A stretch of DNA of 63,666 nt, filler included, from Stramenopiles sp. TOSAG23-2 (lineage: Eukaryota): assembly GCA_900128395.1 (NCBI GenBank). It is 7 parts of 7 records of this genome, joined end to end, with 100 filler letters (N's around TTAATTAATTAA, not from the genome) between each part and the next. Parts side by side here need not be neighbours in the genome. Positions count along the whole stretch, not along the records: positions 27,674 to 55,239 come from LT649414.1; 6 more parts are not named here. One strand, 5' to 3'. The position numbers and the translations under genes are program-made. The first letter of the stretch is position 1. Every line of letters begins with the position of its first letter. Under the pieces are notes generated by a model. It was not told the DNA's origin, did not search any database, and saw nothing but the letters and a program-made list of their open reading frames with translations. Shown piece after piece: positions 13,903 to 33,172 of this stretch.

Positions 13903-16146
13903 TTACAGCAGTAAATTATCTAACTCTTTTGAAACAGGGTTTTCAGATTGTATCGATAAACTAGCTGCTTTCATACCAAATGCTACACTATTGCAATAAT
14001 CTTGTTTTGATAATAAGGTATCAATTGATGTATCAAGATTATTAAGATCTTGATAATCATTTTGAGAGGCTAAAATCATCATGGAACTTATAGTTCCTCC
14101 TACCAACGTATCACCAGCTCCAGTAGCATTTACCATCTCCATGTCGATTACATCTGGTTTTAAATAATTTAATACGACCTCTGTATTCTTTTCCTTGTCG
14201 ACATTTAGACATGCCAAGCAAACTCCTTTTTCTCCTAATGTAATAACTAAATAAGCATTCTTACTCATCGCATTTAAAACATGCAATGCCATATCTTCAA
14301 TAGTTGCAGCAGTGGTCTTCCGATCCTCATTCCTGTCGTTACTATATTGAACAATTAATTCATCATAAATCATTTTCAATTCACTTAAATTAGGCGATAT
14401 AAAATTGATATACTTTAAATTTTCTACTGAGGCAAGTTTTGCTTTTTCAATGGATGTTGGTTCAAACCATATTGGTACAGACTTTTTTGCACAACTTTTA
14501 CATACATAATGAAATATATTTTTTGACAAATTTCCATCTAACACTACTAACCATGGTTTATGGTTTGATTTCATTAATTGATCATCAAATATATGTTCAA
14601 TTTTTTGCCTATCCATCCTATTCATAATGTCCATATCTGCAATAGCGCAATATAAATCCCCATTACTATCTAAAACAGCTTGGTAAATAGCAGTGGAACA
14701 TTCATTACTCTTATAAACATCGGTGACATCGATGCCAAGCATAGTTAAATGATCAAGAATCGCTTTACCATATGTATCATTGCCAACAAAGGAAATAAAT
14801 TTGATATTTTTTTGATTTTGATTTTTACTATCATTATTCACATTGATATTGTTTCTTAAAGATCTCCCCAGTGCCTCGGCAATATTTCTTCCGACTCCGC
14901 CATATGATGTTTGGACAACTCCTGGCGTCGATGTATTTGCCAGTGTTGCATTTGGGATAGTCGGTCTGCCTACTAAATCTACGGTTGATCCGCCGAATAT
15001 ATAAACACATTTACTATGTTTCATATCTGGTCTAGGAGATGATGTGCTATAACATCTTCTACTATTTGCTGTAAATCCTATGATCTTCTTTTCATTTGTT
15101 GCTGTTGCGGTTGCAGCAGCTATTTTTGCTCCGATTTGAGCATTATTTTTTACCAATGCTATATTAGATTTAAGGCTGTTTCCACCTGTAAGCTCATTTA
15201 CTCGTTTCAATAAAAATGGCGTTGCTTCTTTTCCACTAAAAGTGGGATTGTCCGATTTCATTTTTTCCAGTTCATCTAATGCTTGATTGACCGATTTATC
15301 TATGAATGTTTCATCTGCGAATGGTTCAGAATTAGGCACAGCTAATATGGATCCACTATTTAAATTCAATACTTTATTTGTTTCAATCCACTTAGCACAA
15401 TCTTCAATTGTATTTAAGCGCATAGGAACATTTAAACCAGACCTTCGTGTGAAAAATGATGGAAATTCATCGGTATCGTATCCAATTACTGCAACTCCTT
15501 GTGTTTCTAAAAATTCTAATGTTCTTGGAATATCTAAGATTGATTTCACCCCTGCACATACGACCATAATATTATTATTACGACCTAACTCAATTAAATC
15601 AGCTGATATATCTAAATCTTCCCCACGATGTACACCACCAATGCCACCGGTAACAAAAATGTCAATGTAGCCAAATAGATTAGCTATTGCCAATGTTCCT
15701 GCCACTGTAGTGGCTCCGTGTTCTTTTTTTGACACTACATAACTTATATCACGCCTTGAACATTTTTTAACTGTACCTTTAGTGCCTTCTGTAGCTAATA
15801 ATTTCAGTTGCTCATTATTTAAACCTATGTGTATCTTGCCATCTAATACAGCGATTGTGGCTGGACAGGCGTTGTTTTCTCTTACAATATTTTCGACCTC
15901 AATCGCCGTCTCATAATTTTTTGGATACGGCATCCCATGACTTATTATCGTAGATTCCAACGCAACGATTGGTATATTATTTTTTAATGCCTCAATCACT
16001 TCGTTGGATTTAATAAATTTTGAGTTATTATTATTATTATTACCAATATTAGAAACCACAACGGAATATCGCTTACCAATATTTCTGCTAATAATGGAGG
16101 CAGAAACGCGAAGCATGGATGGGTTGAGGTATTGTCGTATCATCAT
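13903..16146 (-). CDS. Bifunctional pseudouridine-5'-phosphate glycosidase (PsuG/IndA) / pseudouridine kinase (PfkB), probable mitochondrial presequence
   Basis: VALESTIISHGMPYP, GATTVA, FVTGGIGGVHRG and DISADL (PsuG); GGVGRNIAEAL, PNLSEL and VNATGAGDT (PfkB). Arg/Ser-rich, acid-free N-terminus. First ATG at 16146. Confidence 0.93.
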   Translation of the reverse strand: MMIRQYLNPSMLRVSASIISRNIGKRYSVVVSNIGNNNNNNSKFIKSNEVIEALKNNIPIVALESTIISHGMPYPKNYETAIEVENIVRENNACPATIAVLDGKIHIGLNNEQLKLLATEGTKGTVKKCSRRDISYVVSKKEHGATTVAGTLAIANLFGYIDIFVTGGIGGVHRGEDLDISADLIELGRNNNIMVVCAGVKSILDIPRTLEFLETQGVAVIGYDTDEFPSFFTRRSGLNVPMRLNTIEDCAKWIETNKVLNLNSGSILAVPNSEPFADETFIDKSVNQALDELEKMKSDNPTFSGKEATPFLLKRVNELTGGNSLKSNIALVKNNAQIGAKIAAATATATNEKKIIGFTANSRRCYSTSSPRPDMKHSKCVYIFGGSTVDLVGRPTIPNATLANTSTPGVVQTSYGGVGRNIAEALGRSLRNNINVNNDSKNQNQKNIKFISFVGNDTYGKAILDHLTMLGIDVTDVYKSNECSTAIYQAVLDSNGDLYCAIADMDIMNRMDRQKIEHIFDDQLMKSNHKPWLVVLDGNLSKNIFHYVCKSCAKKSVPIWFEPTSIEKAKLASVENLKYINFISPNLSELKMIYDELIVQYSNDRNEDRKTTAATIEDMALHVLNAMSKNAYLVITLGEKGVCLACLNVDKEKNTEVVLNYLKPDVIDMEMVNATGAGDTLVGGTISSMMILASQNDYQDLNNLDTSIDTLLSKQDYCNSVAFGMKAASLSIQSENPVSKELDNLLL

Positions 16147-16855: not shown

Positions 16856-19245
16856 ATGCAAATGAAGAACAGACGAATGTCAGACAAAAAAGTGATTACC
16901 GCAATAGAGATTGGGGTTGTTGAAAAAATAGAGGAAACGATTGAGAAAAATACTATGGTTGATGTACAAGAAGAAAAGCACATTGTAACAACTACCAATG
17001 TTGTCATATCAATTGAAAATGAGGATATTACAATGGACAAAGACAAGAAGGCACCTGTACTTAAAAAAGAGAAGAAGAAAAAGAAGAAACTAACACGAAC
17101 CCGTTTAAATACAAGTTTAAATACAATTTTAAATTCAATAGAACAAGATATATCGTATAGAAAAAATATTGGATGCAAAGGTACTTTTATATTATGTTTA
17201 AATTTATTTATGATAGGATTGTACGTCTATGGTTTTCAGATATATGGTGGCTTTACTTGCAGGGTGAACCATTGCCCTGCCACCATATTTTTCTTTATTT
17301 TCGGTCTCTTAAATACATTGTCATTCTTGTATTTGATTCTTCGATGGAAAGTAAAAATTAAAAACAGGATAAAACGAATGTCAAAATCAAACTATAAATC
17401 AAAACATCCATTTAAAAATTTATTAAATATGTACTATAGTAGATTTGGTTTACATGGAAAGTATTATTTATATAAATTATATGGATCGGAAATGTTAGAA
17501 AAAATATCACAAACATATAGTTTTATATGTATATATACATGTATTTTACCATATCAATATACAATGTCATTTTGCGTATTGTACATAATCGATTCAGGTA
17601 TATTAGTGAAAACAATATATAAAAGTTTATTTGGTACAAGTAAGATTATATCAGCAGCTGAACGTGATTTACAGTTAGCAAGAGATGTAATATTTGATTT
17701 GATTTGTGCTTTAACGCCATTTCTTCTAGGTCAAAGACTTCCAGTAAATATTAATGAAATAATGTTTATCCTATTTGTACCATCCATGTCATTATTTGGT
17801 AAAATACGCAGTCTTTTTAAAGAAGCATTGTTTCATAATGTAGATATGTTAATCATAAAACTGGAAACGAAAGCATCAGCTTCTATCAAACGACATCGCA
17901 GATCAATATATCGACAAGCTATATCTGAAAAAGAACAAATAATACAAAGTAAATATTTTATCAAACCAGTACGACAGATATTATTGTTTATTGGTGTTGT
18001 ACATGTGTTATGTTTTACCTGTATATTTTTTGTACAATTATCACATGGTATTAATTTGGAAAAACATGATAAGATGTGTCATGAATTGTATCACAATGAT
18101 ACAAATCCAAAATCTTATCATAATATATGGAGTAATAATAATAATGCCGACTGGTTTGGTTGTAAAATAAAAACACCATTTTGTAAAAGTGTATTTGTAC
18201 CAACATGTAATTGTGCACATTTATCTTTAGAAAGTATAAATGTACCAACTTTACCAGATAATATTATATATGAAATGAATTCGTTAAAAAAACTTGAAGT
18301 TGTTAATTGTAATTTAACAACACTGCCAAAGAATATGGAAAATTTAAAATTTATGGCTAGTATTGATTTATCGTATAATAAATTGACGGAATTTAATGTT
18401 GATGTGAAGGAATGGGTATATTTGAATCTATTAAATTTCCAATTTAACAATATTAGTAAATATTTGATTTATCGTATAATAAATTGACGGAATTTAATGT
18501 TGATGTGAAGGAATGGGTATATTTGAATCTATTAAATTTCCAATTTAACAATATTAGTAAATATAATATGGATTCTTTATGGCAACAATCCACTTTGAAG
18601 TATTTGTATGCAAAGAATAATCCAAATTTTGAAATTCCAAATGAAGTTAATATTCATATGCCAATGTTAACATTTCTTGATCTTCGGAATAACAGTATAC
18701 AATTGCCAAATAAATTTGGAAAGGATCAATTTCCAGCACTTAAGTGGCTTTATTTATCTGGAAATAATTTAAATATATTTCCTGATAATATTGATACTTT
18801 GAATGAGAATCTTTTGTATATGTACATTGCTCGATGTCATATAAATACATTGCCATCGTATTTATCAAAATTCATACGTTTGAAAGGTTTTGATGCACGT
18901 AATAATAATATAAGTGTTGTTGATCCGACATTTCAATCAATATTTTACGATGAAAAGGATAGCTCCAAGCGTAACAAGCGTCGTGCACTATTTTCTGGAA
19001 ATCCAGTATGTCGTACAGATACAAATTTGAAAAAAAGTGGTAGTTGCAAAGAAATGTGTTCAAGCTATTGTCAGTATAAAGAAAAAGAAAAAGATGAAAG
19101 TGGTAATGGTTATTGTGATGCTGAATGTAACTCTGAAAAATGTAATTATGATAAAGGGGATTGTAAAGGGAATTTACAATGTAATTATGATAAAGGGGAA
19201 TTTACAATTAAGTATGATAAAGGGGTTTGTAAGCCTGAAAAATAA
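16856..19245 (+). CDS. Multi-pass membrane protein with LRRs and a C-terminal LNR (Lin12/Notch)-like module; split into two ORFs by a 101-bp duplication
   Basis: Several TM helices, Cys-rich cap (CKIKTPFC, CNCA), LRRs (LKKLEVVNCNLTTLP, LDLRNNSIQLP, LYLSGNNLNIFP), GNPVC cap, GNGYCDAECNSEKCNYDKGDC. Removing 18464-18564 joins ORFs 16856..18487 and 18484..19245. Confidence 0.82.
18363..18564. repeat. Exact 101-bp tandem duplication causing a frameshift (likely assembly artefact)
   Basis: 18363-18463 = 18464-18564. Confidence 0.95.
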
Positions 19246-25365: not shown

Positions 25366-26218
25366 ATACGATCTTCGTTCTTCGTATAAGTGATTTATTT
25401 AGGAAAACGAACGATTTTTAGCAATTTTTTTTCAAGGAGTTTTTGATAGTCATACAAATTAGTATACTAATGTAAATACTATTAAAATGAATCGAGTAAT
25501 AGCTTCTTTTGAAGTTATTTAGTATATTAGAATGGAAAACATAGTCCATAACTCGATACAATATAAATAAAATAATCAAAAAGAAAACGTACTAAAGGAA
25601 CCTTTTAACCCCGTTTTCCTTCGCGATTTTCTGATCCAGAAATTTATGTTGAATTATAGTGACGATTCGATCACGGTAGGACAGAAATCAGCATGCTATT
25701 ACCATGTTAAATATATATAAGTGATCTTGGCAATGCGGTTTTTGAGATGAGAGATTAAGATGCGCAGTTTAAGTTGCATGCGTCATATTTTTTTAAAATA
25801 AAAAAAAAAACAGAATTTTTCGAAGATTCCAAATTTGGACACACTACAAATATTAGACTATAGTACGGATCACCTATATATTTTCACATGATAAACCTTA
25901 ATGTGGGGATGGGGATTGGTTTTCATTTTTTCATAGGAAAATTATACGTACTTATTTCTTTTAAAACACTACTCAAATTGTCAAATGTCTGCCACTTTCT
26001 CAGCTTTTCATTTTGTCTGAAAATACCAAAAAAAAAAAAACGATTATTTTATAAAATAGCATGCACGTATTACTATGCACCTATATATAATATATATATA
26101 TTTTTGAAAATAATAATATATAGAAATGCTGTGAGGAAGAAAAAACCTCTAATACTGTATGTTATATATAGTTATACAGGTAATAAACAACGAAACAACC
26201 AAATCAACGCAAACTACC

Positions 26219-26773
26219 ATGGCGTCCTCACCCAATTCAAAGATGGTGCAAAATGCAAAACGCTTCATGAGTAACAATAGTAATATTGATATGGATGCAT
26301 ATCCAATATTACGAATTGATGAGCTTACTAATGCAACGGATGATATTTTAAAACAATCTTTAAACGATATACCGGAATTAATTAATAAATTAAAATATGA
26401 AGATAGGAAAAATTTGGTACAAAAAGAAAATCCATTATTAAAATATGCACACAAACAAATAGAAGCAATGGAAGAGGAAATTACCAAACGCAATGCATTG
26501 AAACGTGTGGAAAGAATGTTACAAGGAAAAGAAGAGGTCAAGCCAAAATCATATGATAATTTAAACTTATCTAAAATTAGAAAACCAACAAGACCACGTT
26601 CATCCTCTTCCATTATCACCAATAATAATAATAATAGTAGTAATATTACCAACAACAGCAGTGCTACGAAACCACCAACATCTCCAATTTTATCATCTCG
26701 AAAAAAAATGGTAAGAAGCAATTTTGATAATAACAACAGCCAAGAAAATACCAATTATAGTAACAACAACAAC

Positions 26774-26807
<34 letters not shown>

Positions 26808-27573
26808 TAATGCTTAATACAAGTGCAACACGTACAATATCAAGTGCAAATAGTAATAATAATAATAACTCCATATCATCATCACGGCGTATACATGGGG
26901 ATAATTATAACACTATACAACCATCTTCAGCAAGATCTGCTATATCGAGGAGAATGAACGATCCAAATAATGATAATAATAGTAGTATGACTATTAATAC
27001 TACCGCCAGCAATGATTATATTAATAATGATAATGACGACGATGATGAAGATGATGATACTTCCAATCTTAAACAGCGTAAACAATCAAAATACCAATCA
27101 CGATATAGTCAATCTGCATTAGAAGCAGAGCGTAAAAAAAAGAAATTAGAATATTCATCATTTGTTGTATCAACTGGTTCTAAAAAGAAAAAAAGAACAA
27201 ATGTTTTTGCTAGACGCCAAAGAGCGGAAAAATTAAAAGCAAAAAAAGATCGTGAAGCATTACAAAATCGACGTAAAGCACAACGTACATCTAAAAATTT
27301 GGAAGCGGCAAGGGAAATGCTTCGTTTAAAAGCTTTAAGAAGAGAAGAAAGAGCAAAACGTAGAAAAATATTAAAGGATATGATGGAAATGCAAACGATG
27401 TCAAAGGAAACTCAAGCAAGGCAGAATGACAATTTAAATGAAATGAGAGGTATGTCAGACAATAATAATGATGATGATAATAGTAATAATAATAATAAAA
27501 ACAATAATTACATTGCCTCAACAAAAAAAGCAACTAGACGAAATAGGGATACTAGTAATAATAATAATAATAA
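26219..27573 (+). CDS. Asn-rich coiled-coil protein of unknown function, 3'-truncated and chimeric at the contig end
   Basis: ORF open to the gap, with poly-Asn tracts and a Lys/Arg/Glu coiled coil. The last ~55 bp are an inverted copy of ~24608-24662. Confidence 0.65.
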
Positions 27574-27673
27574 NNNNNNNNNNNNNNNNNNNNNNNNNNN
27601 NNNNNNNNNNNNNNNNNTTAATTAATTAANNNNNNNNNNNNNNNNNNNNNNNNNNNNNNNNNNNNNNNNNNNN
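27574..27673. other. Artificial contig spacer
   Basis: N44-TTAATTAATTAA-N44, which gives stops in all six frames. Confidence 0.98.
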
Positions 27674-28514: not shown

Positions 28515-28762
28515 TGTAGTATAAATTAAATAATATTAGCATGGAAATACTATTAAGAATATACTATAATACAAATACAAAATATATTTTAATATTAAAA
28601 AAATAATATTTATTTTATATAAAAAAAATTCTCTCTTATTTATAATTATTCAAAATAATGGTTAAAAATCTAATTCAAAATATATATAAATATATATATA
28701 TATGTGTATATAAATTATCACATACGTATATATATATTAAACATCTCTCTCTTCTTCTTGTC

Positions 28763-31393
28763 TCAAATATTTTCAGCAGAATTAACTCTACGTGCCTTGA
28801 TACGATGATGTGGTACCTCCATTGAATGTGACTCACCTACACTATCATCACCAAAAATACTAGCACTTTCTAACAATATATGATGCATTGATGCCGTAGT
28901 GTTTCCTTTTAATCCACCACCACCAACAACAACTTTCAACGTTGCATTTTTTCCATTGGAACTACCTGTTGAATCCCCTCTTTTCGTCCTTTCATCTCCT
29001 GAAATTTCACGATGATCTTTTGATCTAATTCGATTCCGTACGATTGTATCTTTACCTATATCTAATAGATCTTTTTTTGTAGAATTTTCATCATGTGATA
29101 AGCTCAATGATAATTGTTGCCGTCCATCCTTCTCCTTACTATTTTTACGACGATGCTCCGATGCTACAATTGCACGTTTAGATTCATTCCAATGGGAAAT
29201 GTTTAATTTAATATTACGTTTAAATTCATCACCAACTTCCCCAACGTATGTACAAAAATCGGCATAACATTTTAAAACGACAAAACGTATAAATCCAGCT
29301 TGACTTTTTGCATATTTAACCGGATCTTCCGATACGATAAATGCATGTGGTAGCCTTAAATCATTTTCTTTTTCAAATTGACTTAAAAATTCTTCTGTAA
29401 CTAATTTAGACCATCGTTTATGCAATTCTAATGGCTTTGCACCATGTGCTATATCACTGCATTTAATTGTCATTTTTAAACATAATAAACGATCTTTACG
29501 ATCATGAAAATTTAACGATGGTTTATCATTTGTTCCAGCTATTACTTTTGTTTTTTGACGGAATAAATTAAGAATTGGATCAGCTACTTCTTTTGCTAAA
29601 TCCGTTGCTAAGACCAATTCGATAATATATTTTCGAAATGTACCTAAAAAATTTGCTTTTGCAATTTCTTTCTCTTTTTTATCATTAAAAATTTCTATAT
29701 CAACTGCTTTTGGAAACATATCTTTAAATTTTTCATTTGATAAAATTTCAAATGTTGTTGCTGCATGGAAATTTTCCAACACACTATGATCATTATACCT
29801 AATAGCTATTGCAGATTGTGCATTTACTTGAAAGGAATTACTTGTTCCTGGATGTGCAATATCATGTGTTAAACCGGCTATTAACAAACTAAATAATTCT
29901 AAATCATTCATTTGATCTAAAAACCCAGTTTGCTTTGCAATGTAATGTGAACTTGTCATAACATCTCCACCATGTAAATTACTATGATATGGATTTGGCA
30001 AATATGCATCATCAACTTCGATTAAGAATTTTAAAAACATTTCTTCATTGATATTTAATTTCTTACATAAACCATAATGTGAGTTGATCAAATGCCAACC
30101 CATATGGACCAACGGCCATTGACACGTCATTTCTGCGATTTTAAATACGTCGCATCCCCAATGGAACATTTCTTCATTTAAAACTTTTATCAATTTGTCA
30201 TCGTACATAGTTAAACTTTCCAATGATTCGATTGGTACACTTTCATGTAAAACACCCCATTCTGGATATTTCAATCCACTACCAAATGATTTAATACGAG
30301 ATGGACCAACGGTGGAAGTTAATCGAGATGCATAATAAGATCGAGCTAATATGTAATTTCGATCAAATTTATTAGCACGTACAATATATTGCCTAGTTCC
30401 CGATTGTACAATGTAATCTCCAACATTACCAACTTGAATTTGATCTTCCACTGCACGTTTTAAAATAAACGGCTCATTCACACGACATGCTCTTACTGCT
30501 TTTTTTTTTATGTATTGATTTGGTCTACCAACGGCTGGTACATAATTTGTTTCAAATTCTTCCGCTGAAATAACATAGATATCATATCGACGGTCGTTTT
30601 TGTTTTGTGTTGTTGCTTCTGTTGTTATTGTCGTATTTCCTTGATTACTATCATCATTATCTGAAGAGGAGGAAGAAGAAGAAGAAGAAGAATGTTGATT
30701 CCCAACAACAATATAATCTCCAGGTTTTGCTTCATTTTGTCCCCAATCTTTTGTAAAAATGCATGGATCATCAGTACGAAAGGCATAAATTTCAGTAGCT
30801 TTACGAAATAAACGTGAATTTTCCTTTGTTAAATCTTCATCAAATTCTAAATATAAATTTGAACTATCTGCCATTGACGTTTTAGGCGACATAAATTCAT
30901 CCGTACTTAGGCCACTCATACTACCATTTATCGAATCTACATCTGTAGTAAATTGATGCCGTGCTGCAATCGGTGTAAGACCTGTATTTAAATATAGATC
31001 TTTATCTGTGGAAAATAAATCATCCAAATCATCCACTTCAATTTTACGTATACCTCTTACAAATATTCTTGTATTATCTAAATCAGTAGCAAATGGATTG
31101 TTGTTATTCATCCATTCATCTCGATCTTTTAAATATTTTGGATCAGATATTGACTCAACTTTACTTAGCCTGGGTAGTTGTTCTTTATCTTCTTTATTAT
31201 TTGTTATATGTAATGGTTTAGAAGAAGAAGAAGTTGTTTTATTATTATTAATTTTTTTTCCATTACTACCTGTTGGGGAATTATTTGATCTTGCACCCCA
31301 TGAATTTTCGTTTTTTTTCCTGTCATTGTCTATTTTCCCTGTTTTAATATGACTATTTTTTGTCAAATTCCGATTTGTTTGTTTATTTCCCAT
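28763..31393 (-). CDS. Class I 3',5'-cyclic nucleotide phosphodiesterase with a tandem GDYIV module and possible N-myristoylation
   Basis: NPYHSNLHGGDV, HDIAHPGTSN (PDEase I signature), YNDHSVLENFH, LATDL, KCSDIAH, EEF..Q and SQAGFI. Starts MGNKQT. Confidence 0.92.
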   Translation of the reverse strand: MGNKQTNRNLTKNSHIKTGKIDNDRKKNENSWGARSNNSPTGSNGKKINNNKTTSSSSKPLHITNNKEDKEQLPRLSKVESISDPKYLKDRDEWMNNNNPFATDLDNTRIFVRGIRKIEVDDLDDLFSTDKDLYLNTGLTPIAARHQFTTDVDSINGSMSGLSTDEFMSPKTSMADSSNLYLEFDEDLTKENSRLFRKATEIYAFRTDDPCIFTKDWGQNEAKPGDYIVVGNQHSSSSSSSSSSDNDDSNQGNTTITTEATTQNKNDRRYDIYVISAEEFETNYVPAVGRPNQYIKKKAVRACRVNEPFILKRAVEDQIQVGNVGDYIVQSGTRQYIVRANKFDRNYILARSYYASRLTSTVGPSRIKSFGSGLKYPEWGVLHESVPIESLESLTMYDDKLIKVLNEEMFHWGCDVFKIAEMTCQWPLVHMGWHLINSHYGLCKKLNINEEMFLKFLIEVDDAYLPNPYHSNLHGGDVMTSSHYIAKQTGFLDQMNDLELFSLLIAGLTHDIAHPGTSNSFQVNAQSAIAIRYNDHSVLENFHAATTFEILSNEKFKDMFPKAVDIEIFNDKKEKEIAKANFLGTFRKYIIELVLATDLAKEVADPILNLFRQKTKVIAGTNDKPSLNFHDRKDRLLCLKMTIKCSDIAHGAKPLELHKRWSKLVTEEFLSQFEKENDLRLPHAFIVSEDPVKYAKSQAGFIRFVVLKCYADFCTYVGEVGDEFKRNIKLNISHWNESKRAIVASEHRRKNSKEKDGRQQLSLSLSHDENSTKKDLLDIGKDTIVRNRIRSKDHREISGDERTKRGDSTGSSNGKNATLKVVVGGGGLKGNTTASMHHILLESASIFGDDSVGESHSMEVPHHRIKARRVNSAENI

Positions 31394-32177: not shown

Positions 32178-33172
32178 CTACAATTTAGAATCGCTACACG
32201 TAACTTCGCAATCTTTCGTATTCGGGCCGGAACAAGGCTTACCACCAGTGCTTACAAGAGAACAATTGTATGCACATATTCCAGAAGGATATGGTTTTAC
32301 AAATGTTTCGCCACCGCTATAACATTTCATTGCATTATGGCCAGACAGTGCTTACAAGAGAACAATTGTATGCACATATTCCAGAAGGATATGGTTTTAC
32401 AAATGTTTCGCCACCGCTATAACATTTCATTGCATTATGGCCAGAGCTGGGGCTGTAAAAGTTGCCGACAGCGCACGGATCTATCCCAGTTACACTCACT
32501 TCTGTCAGATTACACTCGATAAAACACCCATGATAAGATGGGCCAATTGCTTCGCTCATTCGGGCTATATGCAATTTTGAAGGGTCAAATTTTGATGGTA
32601 ACGGTGGGCAACCACCTGGAGAATTTTCACTTGGGAAATTTGCTTCCCATCCATAATCTCCACCTACTTGACCTTGCTTCCAGCACTTTGGGCCGTTTTC
32701 ATACTGAACGCACCCTTCAAAAATAAGACCAGGCTTATGGTCTACTGGGCCATAGGGAAAATCATGCACTGAGTTTGGTTTAGGATCAATACAATTACCA
32801 TTTTTCACAGAGCCACAACATTGCCCAGTTGCTGCGTGCAACATAGCATCAGCGTAATGAAGTGCGCAAAAATAGTACTCCCCAAGTGCCGTATCTGAAG
32901 CACAGTTAATACCATTTTTTGAACAGTTGTACCCAGCATTCTCATAACCGCTACACCATGTAAAAGAAGATGTATTTGCTGCGTAACATGATGCTTCTAC
33001 CTTGATGTGTGTTAATACCATTTTTTGAACAGTTGTACCCAGCATTCTCATAACCGCTACACCATGTAAAAGAAGATGTATTTGCTGCGTAACATGATGC
33101 TTCTACCTTGATGTGTGTAAGATAAGCGGTTGTCAGGATGGCGATTCCCAGCGCTGCGTAAGTATTGGGCAT
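32178..33172 (-). CDS. Secreted Cys-rich protein (~260 aa), broken by two exact tandem duplications
   Basis: Removing one copy each of 32905-33010/33011-33116 (106 bp) and 32246-32345/32346-32445 (100 bp) gives one frame from MPNTYAALGIAILTT to KDCEVTCSDSKL-TAG, with a signal peptide and many Cys. Confidence 0.78.

Follow-up and report, generated by a model that had tools for sequence, protein, structure and literature searches.

The window studied here, i.e. the whole stretch of DNA that was analysed, comprises 63,666 nucleotides from Stramenopiles sp. TOSAG23-2 (assembly GCA_900128395.1). Its minus strand carries a gene for a class I cyclic-nucleotide phosphodiesterase (PDE). The part of the encoded protein in which enzymes of this class bear their regulatory domains contains two small homologous units related to PGDYG (PF14083), a family that is catalogued from bacteria and phages and uncharacterised. 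The features of the gene, together with the bacterial gene pairs discussed below, are collected in Table 1.

Table 1. Features of the PDE gene in the window and of related bacterial loci (aa, amino acids; CDS, coding sequence; HMM, hidden Markov model; pLDDT, per-residue confidence of the AlphaFold2 model)
Feature	Position	Strand	Basis
Whole CDS, 876 aa and stop codon, single exon	28763..31393	-	ORF (open reading frame) list and translation; full-length relatives; RNA-library contigs without joints
N-terminal MGNKQTN, putative N-myristoylation signal (G2, T6)	31373..31393	-	Sequence; MG start in related PDEs
Conserved pre-module region, aa 74-127: R-L-S site, then W(L/M)...(F/Y/G) around W94	31013..31174	-	Read by eye
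Unit 1 of the module, aa 196-284 (F196 at 30808 to Y284 at 30542), insert included	30542..30808	-	Sequence, relatives, hhalign; AlphaFold2 strands at module residues 5-42 and 83-97
Private Ser/Asn/Thr-rich insert of 36 aa in unit 1, aa 233-268, with (TCT)n repeat	30590..30697	-	Alignments of relatives; DNA; pLDDT <50
Unit 2 of the module, aa 294-347 (Y294 at 30514 to Y347 at 30353)	30353..30514	-	PGDYG profile positions 51-101; hhalign; AlphaFold2 strands at module residues 104-160
Class I PDE catalytic domain, aa 411-717 aligned to solved PDE4-type structures (Pfam core aa 469-720 = 29234-29989)	29243..30163	-	Pfam; PDB sequence search
C-terminal tail, aa 741-876, basic, Ser-rich, no Pfam match	28766..29173	-	Pfam scan; sequence
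Patatin-module pairs, Pseudomonadota	L007 105-1875; L008 315-1875; L014 1501-3105		Local patatin HMM, Pfam

Several observations indicate that the PDE gene is real. It occurs in marine metagenomes and metatranscriptomes, where 20 runs, six of them RNA libraries, contain at least half of its words. Contigs from four RNA libraries, which by themselves are no strict proof of transcription, span the CDS with no joints reported. One RNA-library contig ends in a loose poly-T just before position 28713, as would be expected of a minus-strand mRNA with a poly(A) tail; judged from this end, polyadenylation probably takes place about 50 nt past the stop codon. Full-length relatives of the protein (P0094 and P0095) share 45-48% identity with it, and the members of its 98%-identical cluster are 870-876 residues long. 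The repeat strings quoted in the original prediction are found in the translation of the 876-residue ORF, and the span given there for the module, 30346-30812, covers the right residues, though it lies one base out of frame on the minus strand.

The Pfam model PDEase_I (PF00233) matches residues 469-720 of the protein (194.8 bits, cut-off 24.8; E 2.4e-57). In a search of PDB sequences with residues 401-740, the top match was 6fg5_A (E 1.1e-45), human PDE4D was found at E 2.4e-41, and PDE8A, PDE1B and PDE9A came next. The alignment to 6fg5_A shows that the Y-H-x-x-x-H-x-x-D-V, H-D-x-x-H-P-G and A-T-D motifs, as well as the later aspartate, are all conserved. An S-Q-x-x-F element is conserved in alignment with PDE4-type structures, and residues 510-521 appear to fit the class I PDE signature pattern. 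Judged from these residues, the PDE4-like class I domain looks catalytically competent.

A Pfam scan of the whole protein at E values up to 10 returned PDEase_I, PGDYG and HD only, and no GAF, PAS, UCR, REC or cyclic nucleotide monophosphate (cNMP)-binding domain; HMMER filters discard most matches above an E value of about 0.1, and a very weak similarity could escape such a scan. Likewise, none of the profiles of known PDE regulators (GAF, PAS, REC, cNMP-binding) matched the N-terminal 468 residues at E values up to 10. The earlier statement that the repeated unit resembles none of the established PDE regulators is in line with these scans. Its placing, N-terminal to PDEase_I in the regulatory-domain position of class I PDEs, also proved correct, and no paper on this arrangement was found.

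The two units were compared with each other in several ways. Each bears a GDYIV motif (residues 224-229 in unit 1 and 324-329 in unit 2), which reads P-G-D-Y-I in the former and V-G-D-Y-I in the latter, so that G-D-Y of the P-G-D-Y-G motif, presumably the namesake of the PGDYG family, is kept and its final G is not; in the family consensus built in this study the motif is G-D-W-v/l. BLASTP of unit 1 against unit 2 gave E values of 0.001 and 0.023. When profiles of the two units, derived from an alignment of 32 relatives, were compared by hhalign, 57 columns were aligned with 98.5% probability (E 2.9e-15, 28% identity). An internal duplication of the module is well supported by these comparisons, in line with the initial claim of two homologous units ahead of the catalytic domain. 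The description of the units as a tandem of two PGDYG domains did not hold: since the Pfam model covers, with its 102 positions, the whole of unit 2 but just the latter half of unit 1, what is present is instead one internally duplicated module. It is the only one in the window, where a six-frame scan gave a single match (E 1.4e-39), the next having an E value of 1.3.

A consensus of the module was built from 98 near-full instances in 83 proteins. Near-invariant residues of this consensus are K, A, K-x-W-G and F...Y for unit 1 and K, A, F and F...Y for unit 2. Of the 29 positions with a conservation of at least 65%, 24 are retained in the window protein, among them K198, A204, K215, W217, G218, F280, Y284, K296, A302, F343 and Y347, and two of the five differences are conservative.

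The insert in unit 1 seems to be largely private to this protein, because query residues 2-43 and 81-160 match adjacent stretches in most relatives; the flanks of the insert abut in these proteins, and a few, e.g. P0018, align across a shorter gap. Contigs from RNA libraries and from DNA alike are interrupted at the (TCT)n repeat (30659-30701). An intron was considered here, as the DNA contains a pyrimidine run ending in CAG, and was rejected: RNA-library contigs in four of four runs enter the insert up to position 30658 with no joint, the 43-base repeat at 30659-30701 being the part left unbridged. The serine repeat encoded by (TCT)n and the range of protein lengths within the 98%-identical cluster suggest that repeat length varies in populations.

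By sequence comparison the module is homologous to the PGDYG superfamily, and the window protein belongs to a divergent two-unit subfamily that falls short of the Pfam rule for membership. PF14083 scores 18.4 bits on the whole protein, below its gathering cut-off of 27, and 24.7 bits (E 3e-5) on residues 190-352, where profile positions 18-101 of 102 are covered; unit 2 alone covers positions 51-101. The protein stays under the cut-off because the 36-residue insert costs the match the first 17 profile positions. Two orthologous PDEs lie above the cut-off (P0024 with 33.5 bits and P0021 with 31.5 bits) and two below it (P0019 with 26.7 and P0036 with 23.9), and P0042, a stand-alone relative, reaches 35.6 bits.

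Residues 190-352 served as query in an exhaustive HMMER search among 1.84 billion representatives, which yielded 77 proteins with E<=1e-3, six with E<=1e-10 and two with E<=1e-30, and relatives that pass the PGDYG cut-off were reached at E values down to 1e-19. These 77 homologues and the query make up the 78 proteins scanned with Pfam, 40 of which match PF14083 at E<=1e-3 (best 5.2e-94). Phage families are matched as well: PHROG 419 by 17 of 28 relatives, PHROG 36774 by 16 and PHROG 1810 by 15. The PGDYG-type domain named in the original prediction was therefore right at the level of the superfamily. Several other searches gave little or nothing. A word-index search with the module region found the near-identical cluster only (one match), tblastn with P0042 as query gave no match in 50,697 phage records, and no PADLOC model matched the module itself. 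In four genomes with homologues of the patatins described below PF14083 found nothing, as in control genomes, and we conclude from these four that the model is too narrow for the two-unit bacterial subfamily; one relative, P0041, has no Pfam match.

The fold of the module was predicted with AlphaFold2. With the alignment of 32 relatives, the model of the window module has a mean pLDDT of 83.9 and a predicted template modelling score (pTM) of 0.68, and the insert is the only part below 50. The stand-alone protein P0042, 138 residues long, was modelled with a pLDDT of 94.1 and a pTM of 0.81 and has the same strand pattern, in which each unit consists of five strands, a short helix and a further strand. 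Foldseek against PDB found nothing at E<=1e-3 for either model. The best VIA-align matches of the window model were an SH3 domain (3ehq_A; Z 4.4, root-mean-square deviation (rmsd) 2.1 A over 47 residues) and a tandem Tudor domain (8ye8_B; Z 4.2, 2.2 A over 46 residues). The latter was also the best match of the P0042 model (Z 3.9, 3.0 A over 48 residues), and among 48,161 chains none reached Z >=5 with either model. A profile search of PDB sequences with the module gave a best E value of 0.37. In BFVD there were five matches with E<=1e-3, all to uncharacterised proteins of phages or giant viruses, and entries named 'PGDYG protein' appeared at E 0.26-0.48; matches in the ESM Atlas, with scores up to 0.89, are leads only. 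The models predict with confidence a double small beta-barrel, which would be of the general SH3/Tudor kind, although its matches to these folds are weak and no solved relative was found. Modelled as a complex, the module and the catalytic domain gave scores of 0.00, 0.62 and 0.01 from a predictor that made no use of the alignments, and these scores speak neither for nor against a contact.

The same combination of module and PDE domain recurs across sequence clusters, at least a dozen in number. In P0019, P0021, P0024, P0036, P0043, P0094-P0099 and P0103 the PDE domain is preceded by the module, and P0018 and P0020 are N-terminal fragments that add to this set; all of these proteins are of metagenome or assembly origin. 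Named PDE matches (from ciliates, Chloropicon, Rozella and others) cover the catalytic part only, and in precomputed annotations PF14083 stands beside PF00233 in one of the 120 listed proteins.

The partners of the module are not limited to PDEs. Among the 78 scanned proteins, the most frequent partner families are kinases (PK_Tyr_Ser-Thr in 20, Pkinase in 17), followed by PDEase_I (six, the query included), EF-hand families (five) and Zeta_toxin/AAA_33 (four), while Patatin, Annexin, Ion_trans, Response_reg, DUF5818 and Mlo (a weak match) occur in one protein each. A kinase motif could be recognised in nine proteins, and in each of them the module follows it on the C-terminal side. A crude hydrophobicity scan detected at least one strongly hydrophobic 19-mer in 18 of the 77 relatives; P0032, P0038, P0057, P0077 and P0090 appear to be multi-pass membrane proteins, in which the module lies between hydrophobic segments, i.e. 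in a loop. In P0017, a protein of 3743 residues, the PGDYG stretch occurs 19 times, spaced at 129 residues, next to an annexin repeat and, at the C-terminus, a P-loop kinase-like domain of the Zeta_toxin/AAA_33 type; P0027 (3138 residues) resembles it. P0089 is bacterial and begins with a signal-peptide-like sequence, and proteins formed by the module alone are 130-170 residues long. For most of the fusion proteins a eukaryotic origin was inferred from the types of domain. These architectures show that the module is mobile among kinases, PDEs, EF-hand proteins, membrane proteins and a bacterial patatin-like phospholipase.

The link with patatin proved to be more than a single case. A profile search for longer proteins gave 16 matches, of which 14 are fusions of module and patatin, one of them annotated as a patatin-like phospholipase in a metagenome-assembled genome of Candidatus Thiodiazotropha. 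The module was detected in five of 300 genomes of Gammaproteobacteria and in ten of 401 of Pseudomonadota, which gave 15 distinct loci. The full two-unit form is present at four of these, and at three of the four it is accompanied by the same patatin, which is fused to the module in L014 and encoded directly upstream of a stand-alone module in L007 and L008. The three patatins match a local HMM of the fused patatins with E values of 1e-156 to 1e-218, as confirmed by Pfam. At the 11 loci with the shorter form no patatin was found within the 1.5-kb flanks, to which the view of all bacterial loci was limited. This pattern is one of gene fusion and fission of a two-part system in bacteria, and it provides the strongest evidence that the two-unit module may work physically with the enzyme to which it is attached.

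The partner patatins match the PADLOC phospholipase 'Effector' models (E about 1e-46), which we take to represent the CapV type of CBASS, activated by cyclic nucleotides. No cyclase and no conserved third gene were found among the neighbours of the module-patatin pairs that were examined. A conserved operon around the bacterial module-patatin fusions was considered and not found: L001 and L004 have different neighbours, and so do L012 and L013. A weak HD-CE match (E 1e-3), a TPR-S protein and a NACHT NTPase were each seen once near module-patatin loci.

Outside the module and the catalytic domain, the N-terminus of the PDE is of note. M-G-N-K-Q-T appears to fit the N-myristoylation consensus, and an MG start is found in nine of 15 N-termini of related PDEs. 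The acylation signal suggested for this protein is present in putative form and recurs in its relatives. Upstream of the module, related PDEs have an R-L-S/R-R-x-S-like site followed by W(L/M)xxxxx(P/L)(F/Y/G). By eye, the W motif, represented here by W94, is found in 14 of the 15 N-termini, the remaining one of which begins downstream of it. From its sequence, the region of residues 74-127 could comprise a phosphorylation site for a basophilic kinase and a second conserved element of the regulatory region.

The rest of the window, whose G+C content is about 25-42%, is densely occupied by long single-exon eukaryotic genes, e.g. those for an NSF homologue, a cathepsin, a DEAD-box helicase and a tubulin-tyrosine-ligase-like protein; scans of the window for tRNA genes and Rfam families gave no match. 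A protein of 747 residues (13903-16146, minus strand) combines an Indigoidine_A-like domain of the pseudouridine-5'-phosphate glycosidase type with a PfkB kinase domain, presumably the ordinary eukaryotic fusion of pseudouridine catabolism. Three ORFs of some size, at 32335-33102 (minus strand), 16856-18487 (plus strand) and 26159-27625 (plus strand), matched no Pfam family at E<=1e-5. The first of these adjoins the PDE gene and encodes 255 residues, cysteine-rich by eye.

Based on these observations, we suggest that the gene product is a PDE4-like class I cyclic-nucleotide phosphodiesterase, catalytically intact as far as its sequence tells, which N-terminal acylation probably anchors to membranes. 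Its regulatory slot is held by one internally duplicated member of the PGDYG superfamily, predicted to form two SH3/Tudor-like beta-barrels of about 55 residues each, packed as one module of about 125 residues that a disordered insert splits. The module may act as a binding or input domain, coupling the activity or the location of the attached enzyme to a ligand or partner, and in this PDE it would set where or when cyclic AMP (cAMP) or cyclic GMP (cGMP) is degraded. The anatomy of the PDE module is solid, and we consider it rather probable that the module is a mobile binding/input domain, whose ligand may be a small molecule, a lipid or a protein. The following points weigh against this proposal: the match to PF14083 lies below the cut-off; the structural matches are weak (Z <=4.4), so that 'SH3/Tudor-like' denotes a general arrangement only; and the range of contexts, from the 19-copy array to P0089 and the stand-alone proteins, argues against a single ligand or mode of action.

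A possible though clearly less probable explanation is that the module is an SH3/Tudor-like adaptor for a protein motif or a membrane lipid, which would localise or scaffold PDE, kinases, channels and phospholipase at membranes and sense no soluble ligand. The best fold neighbours, weak as they are, belong to the peptide-binding SH3, Tudor and chromo barrels; Z values of this size are insufficient for a relationship with SH3 or Tudor domains. Many contexts of the module are linked to membranes, e.g. the MG start of the PDEs, the hydrophobic segments of other relatives, the multi-pass proteins with the module in a loop and its fusions to annexin or to proteins of the Mlo type, and in bacteria it is partnered by a phospholipase; the count of hydrophobic segments comes from a crude scan. 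Finally, 19 copies in tandem are what one finds in adaptor or avidity modules, and are untypical of an allosteric sensor.

The original prediction had seen in the module an allosteric receptor for a nucleotide second messenger, i.e. a cNMP or a cyclic di- or oligonucleotide, which would provide the PDE with feedback or cross-talk as GAF domains do in PDE2 and PDE5. We regard this as unlikely. The module does occupy the position of the known PDE regulators, the match of the partner patatins to effector models would suit such a role, and the near-invariant K215, K296 and W217 could form an anion site. On the other hand, Pfam, VIA-align and PDB-sequence searches revealed no recognisable nucleotide-binding motif or fold, and the examined patatin-module pairs have no cyclase beside them. 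The partners of the module (kinase, PDE, ion-transport protein, patatin) overlap with those of cyclic-nucleotide-binding domains, but this argument is weak, as any signalling domain is most often joined to kinases, PDEs or channels. The descent of the domain from prokaryotes or phages, also put forward in the original prediction, is a conjecture.

A bolder form of the same idea, to which we assign a still lower probability, is that the two-unit module represents a new class of receptor domain for a nucleotide-derived messenger, common to bacterial and phage conflict systems (patatin-like effectors, phage PGDYG proteins) and to protist signalling. If true, the module would gate protist PDEs, kinases, channels and EF-hand proteins; the PDE described here would be messenger-gated and would give a first lead to a so far unrecognised signalling molecule of marine eukaryotes.

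A module serving mainly for dimerisation, like the N-terminal regions of mammalian PDEs, seems improbable: class I PDEs are generally dimers formed via their N-terminal regions, and internally duplicated barrels often self-associate, but dimerisation alone explains neither the stand-alone forms nor the 19-copy array nor the unrelated enzymes. That the similarity is a chance or compositional artefact, with no real domain behind it, might be thought from the sub-threshold Pfam score and the low-complexity sequence in the region, but this reading is refuted by the number of homologues (77 at E<=1e-3, six at E<=1e-10, with matches that flank the insert and do not lie within it), by the hhalign result, by the confidently predicted fold and by the gap between the first and second hits of the six-frame scan.

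Class I PDEs are classified, and targeted by drugs, largely via their N-terminal regulatory domains, and in the PDE described here this slot is filled by a catalogued family with no assigned function and no solved structure found. Full-text literature searches under 'PGDYG' or 'PF14083' returned nothing on the PGDYG domain family; the matches to 'PGDYG' seem, by title, to be papers on plant light-harvesting proteins or other plant proteomics. A class I PDE with a PGDYG domain, and the wide use of the complete two-unit form by eukaryotes, appear to be undescribed. The PDE with and without the module, and the patatin with and without it, constitute concrete pairs for studies of PGDYG function. 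Should the binding/input domain favoured above turn out to be a ligand sensor, it would represent a new regulatory principle in cyclic-nucleotide signalling and would provide an annotation for a large family of phages and bacteria; if it is only an adaptor, the result is a modest addition to domain catalogues.

The module shares with tandem SH3, tandem Tudor and chromo barrels (3ehq SH3, 8ye8 tandem Tudor, UvrD/PcrA Tudor), its best structural neighbours, the general arrangement of a five-stranded small barrel. It differs from them in that the Z values lie in the range of common arrangements, the alignments extend over one unit's worth of residues only, and there is no sequence relation. With the bacterial patatin-like phospholipase effectors the similarity is one of design, as the module, in its nearest bacterial counterparts, is joined to such an enzyme or encoded beside it, like a small accessory domain placed on an effector; the enzyme and the hosts are different, and no cyclase lies near the bacterial loci examined.

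Among the PDEs themselves, PDE4 carries the UCR1/UCR2 regulators, and PDE2 and PDE5 carry tandem GAF domains. The catalytic domain of the window protein has its nearest match in PDE4-type structures, to which its metal-site motifs and the Q...F element align, and the protein is PDE4-like in this domain only: it has no UCR match at E values up to 10, a PGDYG-type module takes the regulatory slot, and a putative N-terminal acylation signal and a long C-terminal tail are added. The layout is that of the GAF-PDEs (PDE2, 5, 6, 10, 11), in which two homologous small domains also stand in tandem just upstream of the catalytic domain. GAF-A and GAF-B of these enzymes bind cyclic nucleotide and regulate or dimerise the enzyme. 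The units of the window protein are related to them neither in sequence nor in fold and measure about 55 residues versus about 150, and ligand binding is proven for GAF alone.

The nearest known system is PGDYG itself (PF14083, PHROG 419/1810/36774), with which the module has in common the GDY/GDW hairpin and, towards the C-terminus, the F...Y element. The Pfam model fails to detect the most similar two-unit forms in bacteria (none of the four genomes matched, nor did P0041). In comparison with that model, the module of the window protein appears as the complete two-unit form, with an additional N-terminal part (Y-R-K..V.AF..DP...K.WG) that extends beyond it, and, split by its 36-residue insert, it sits in a eukaryotic multidomain signalling enzyme.

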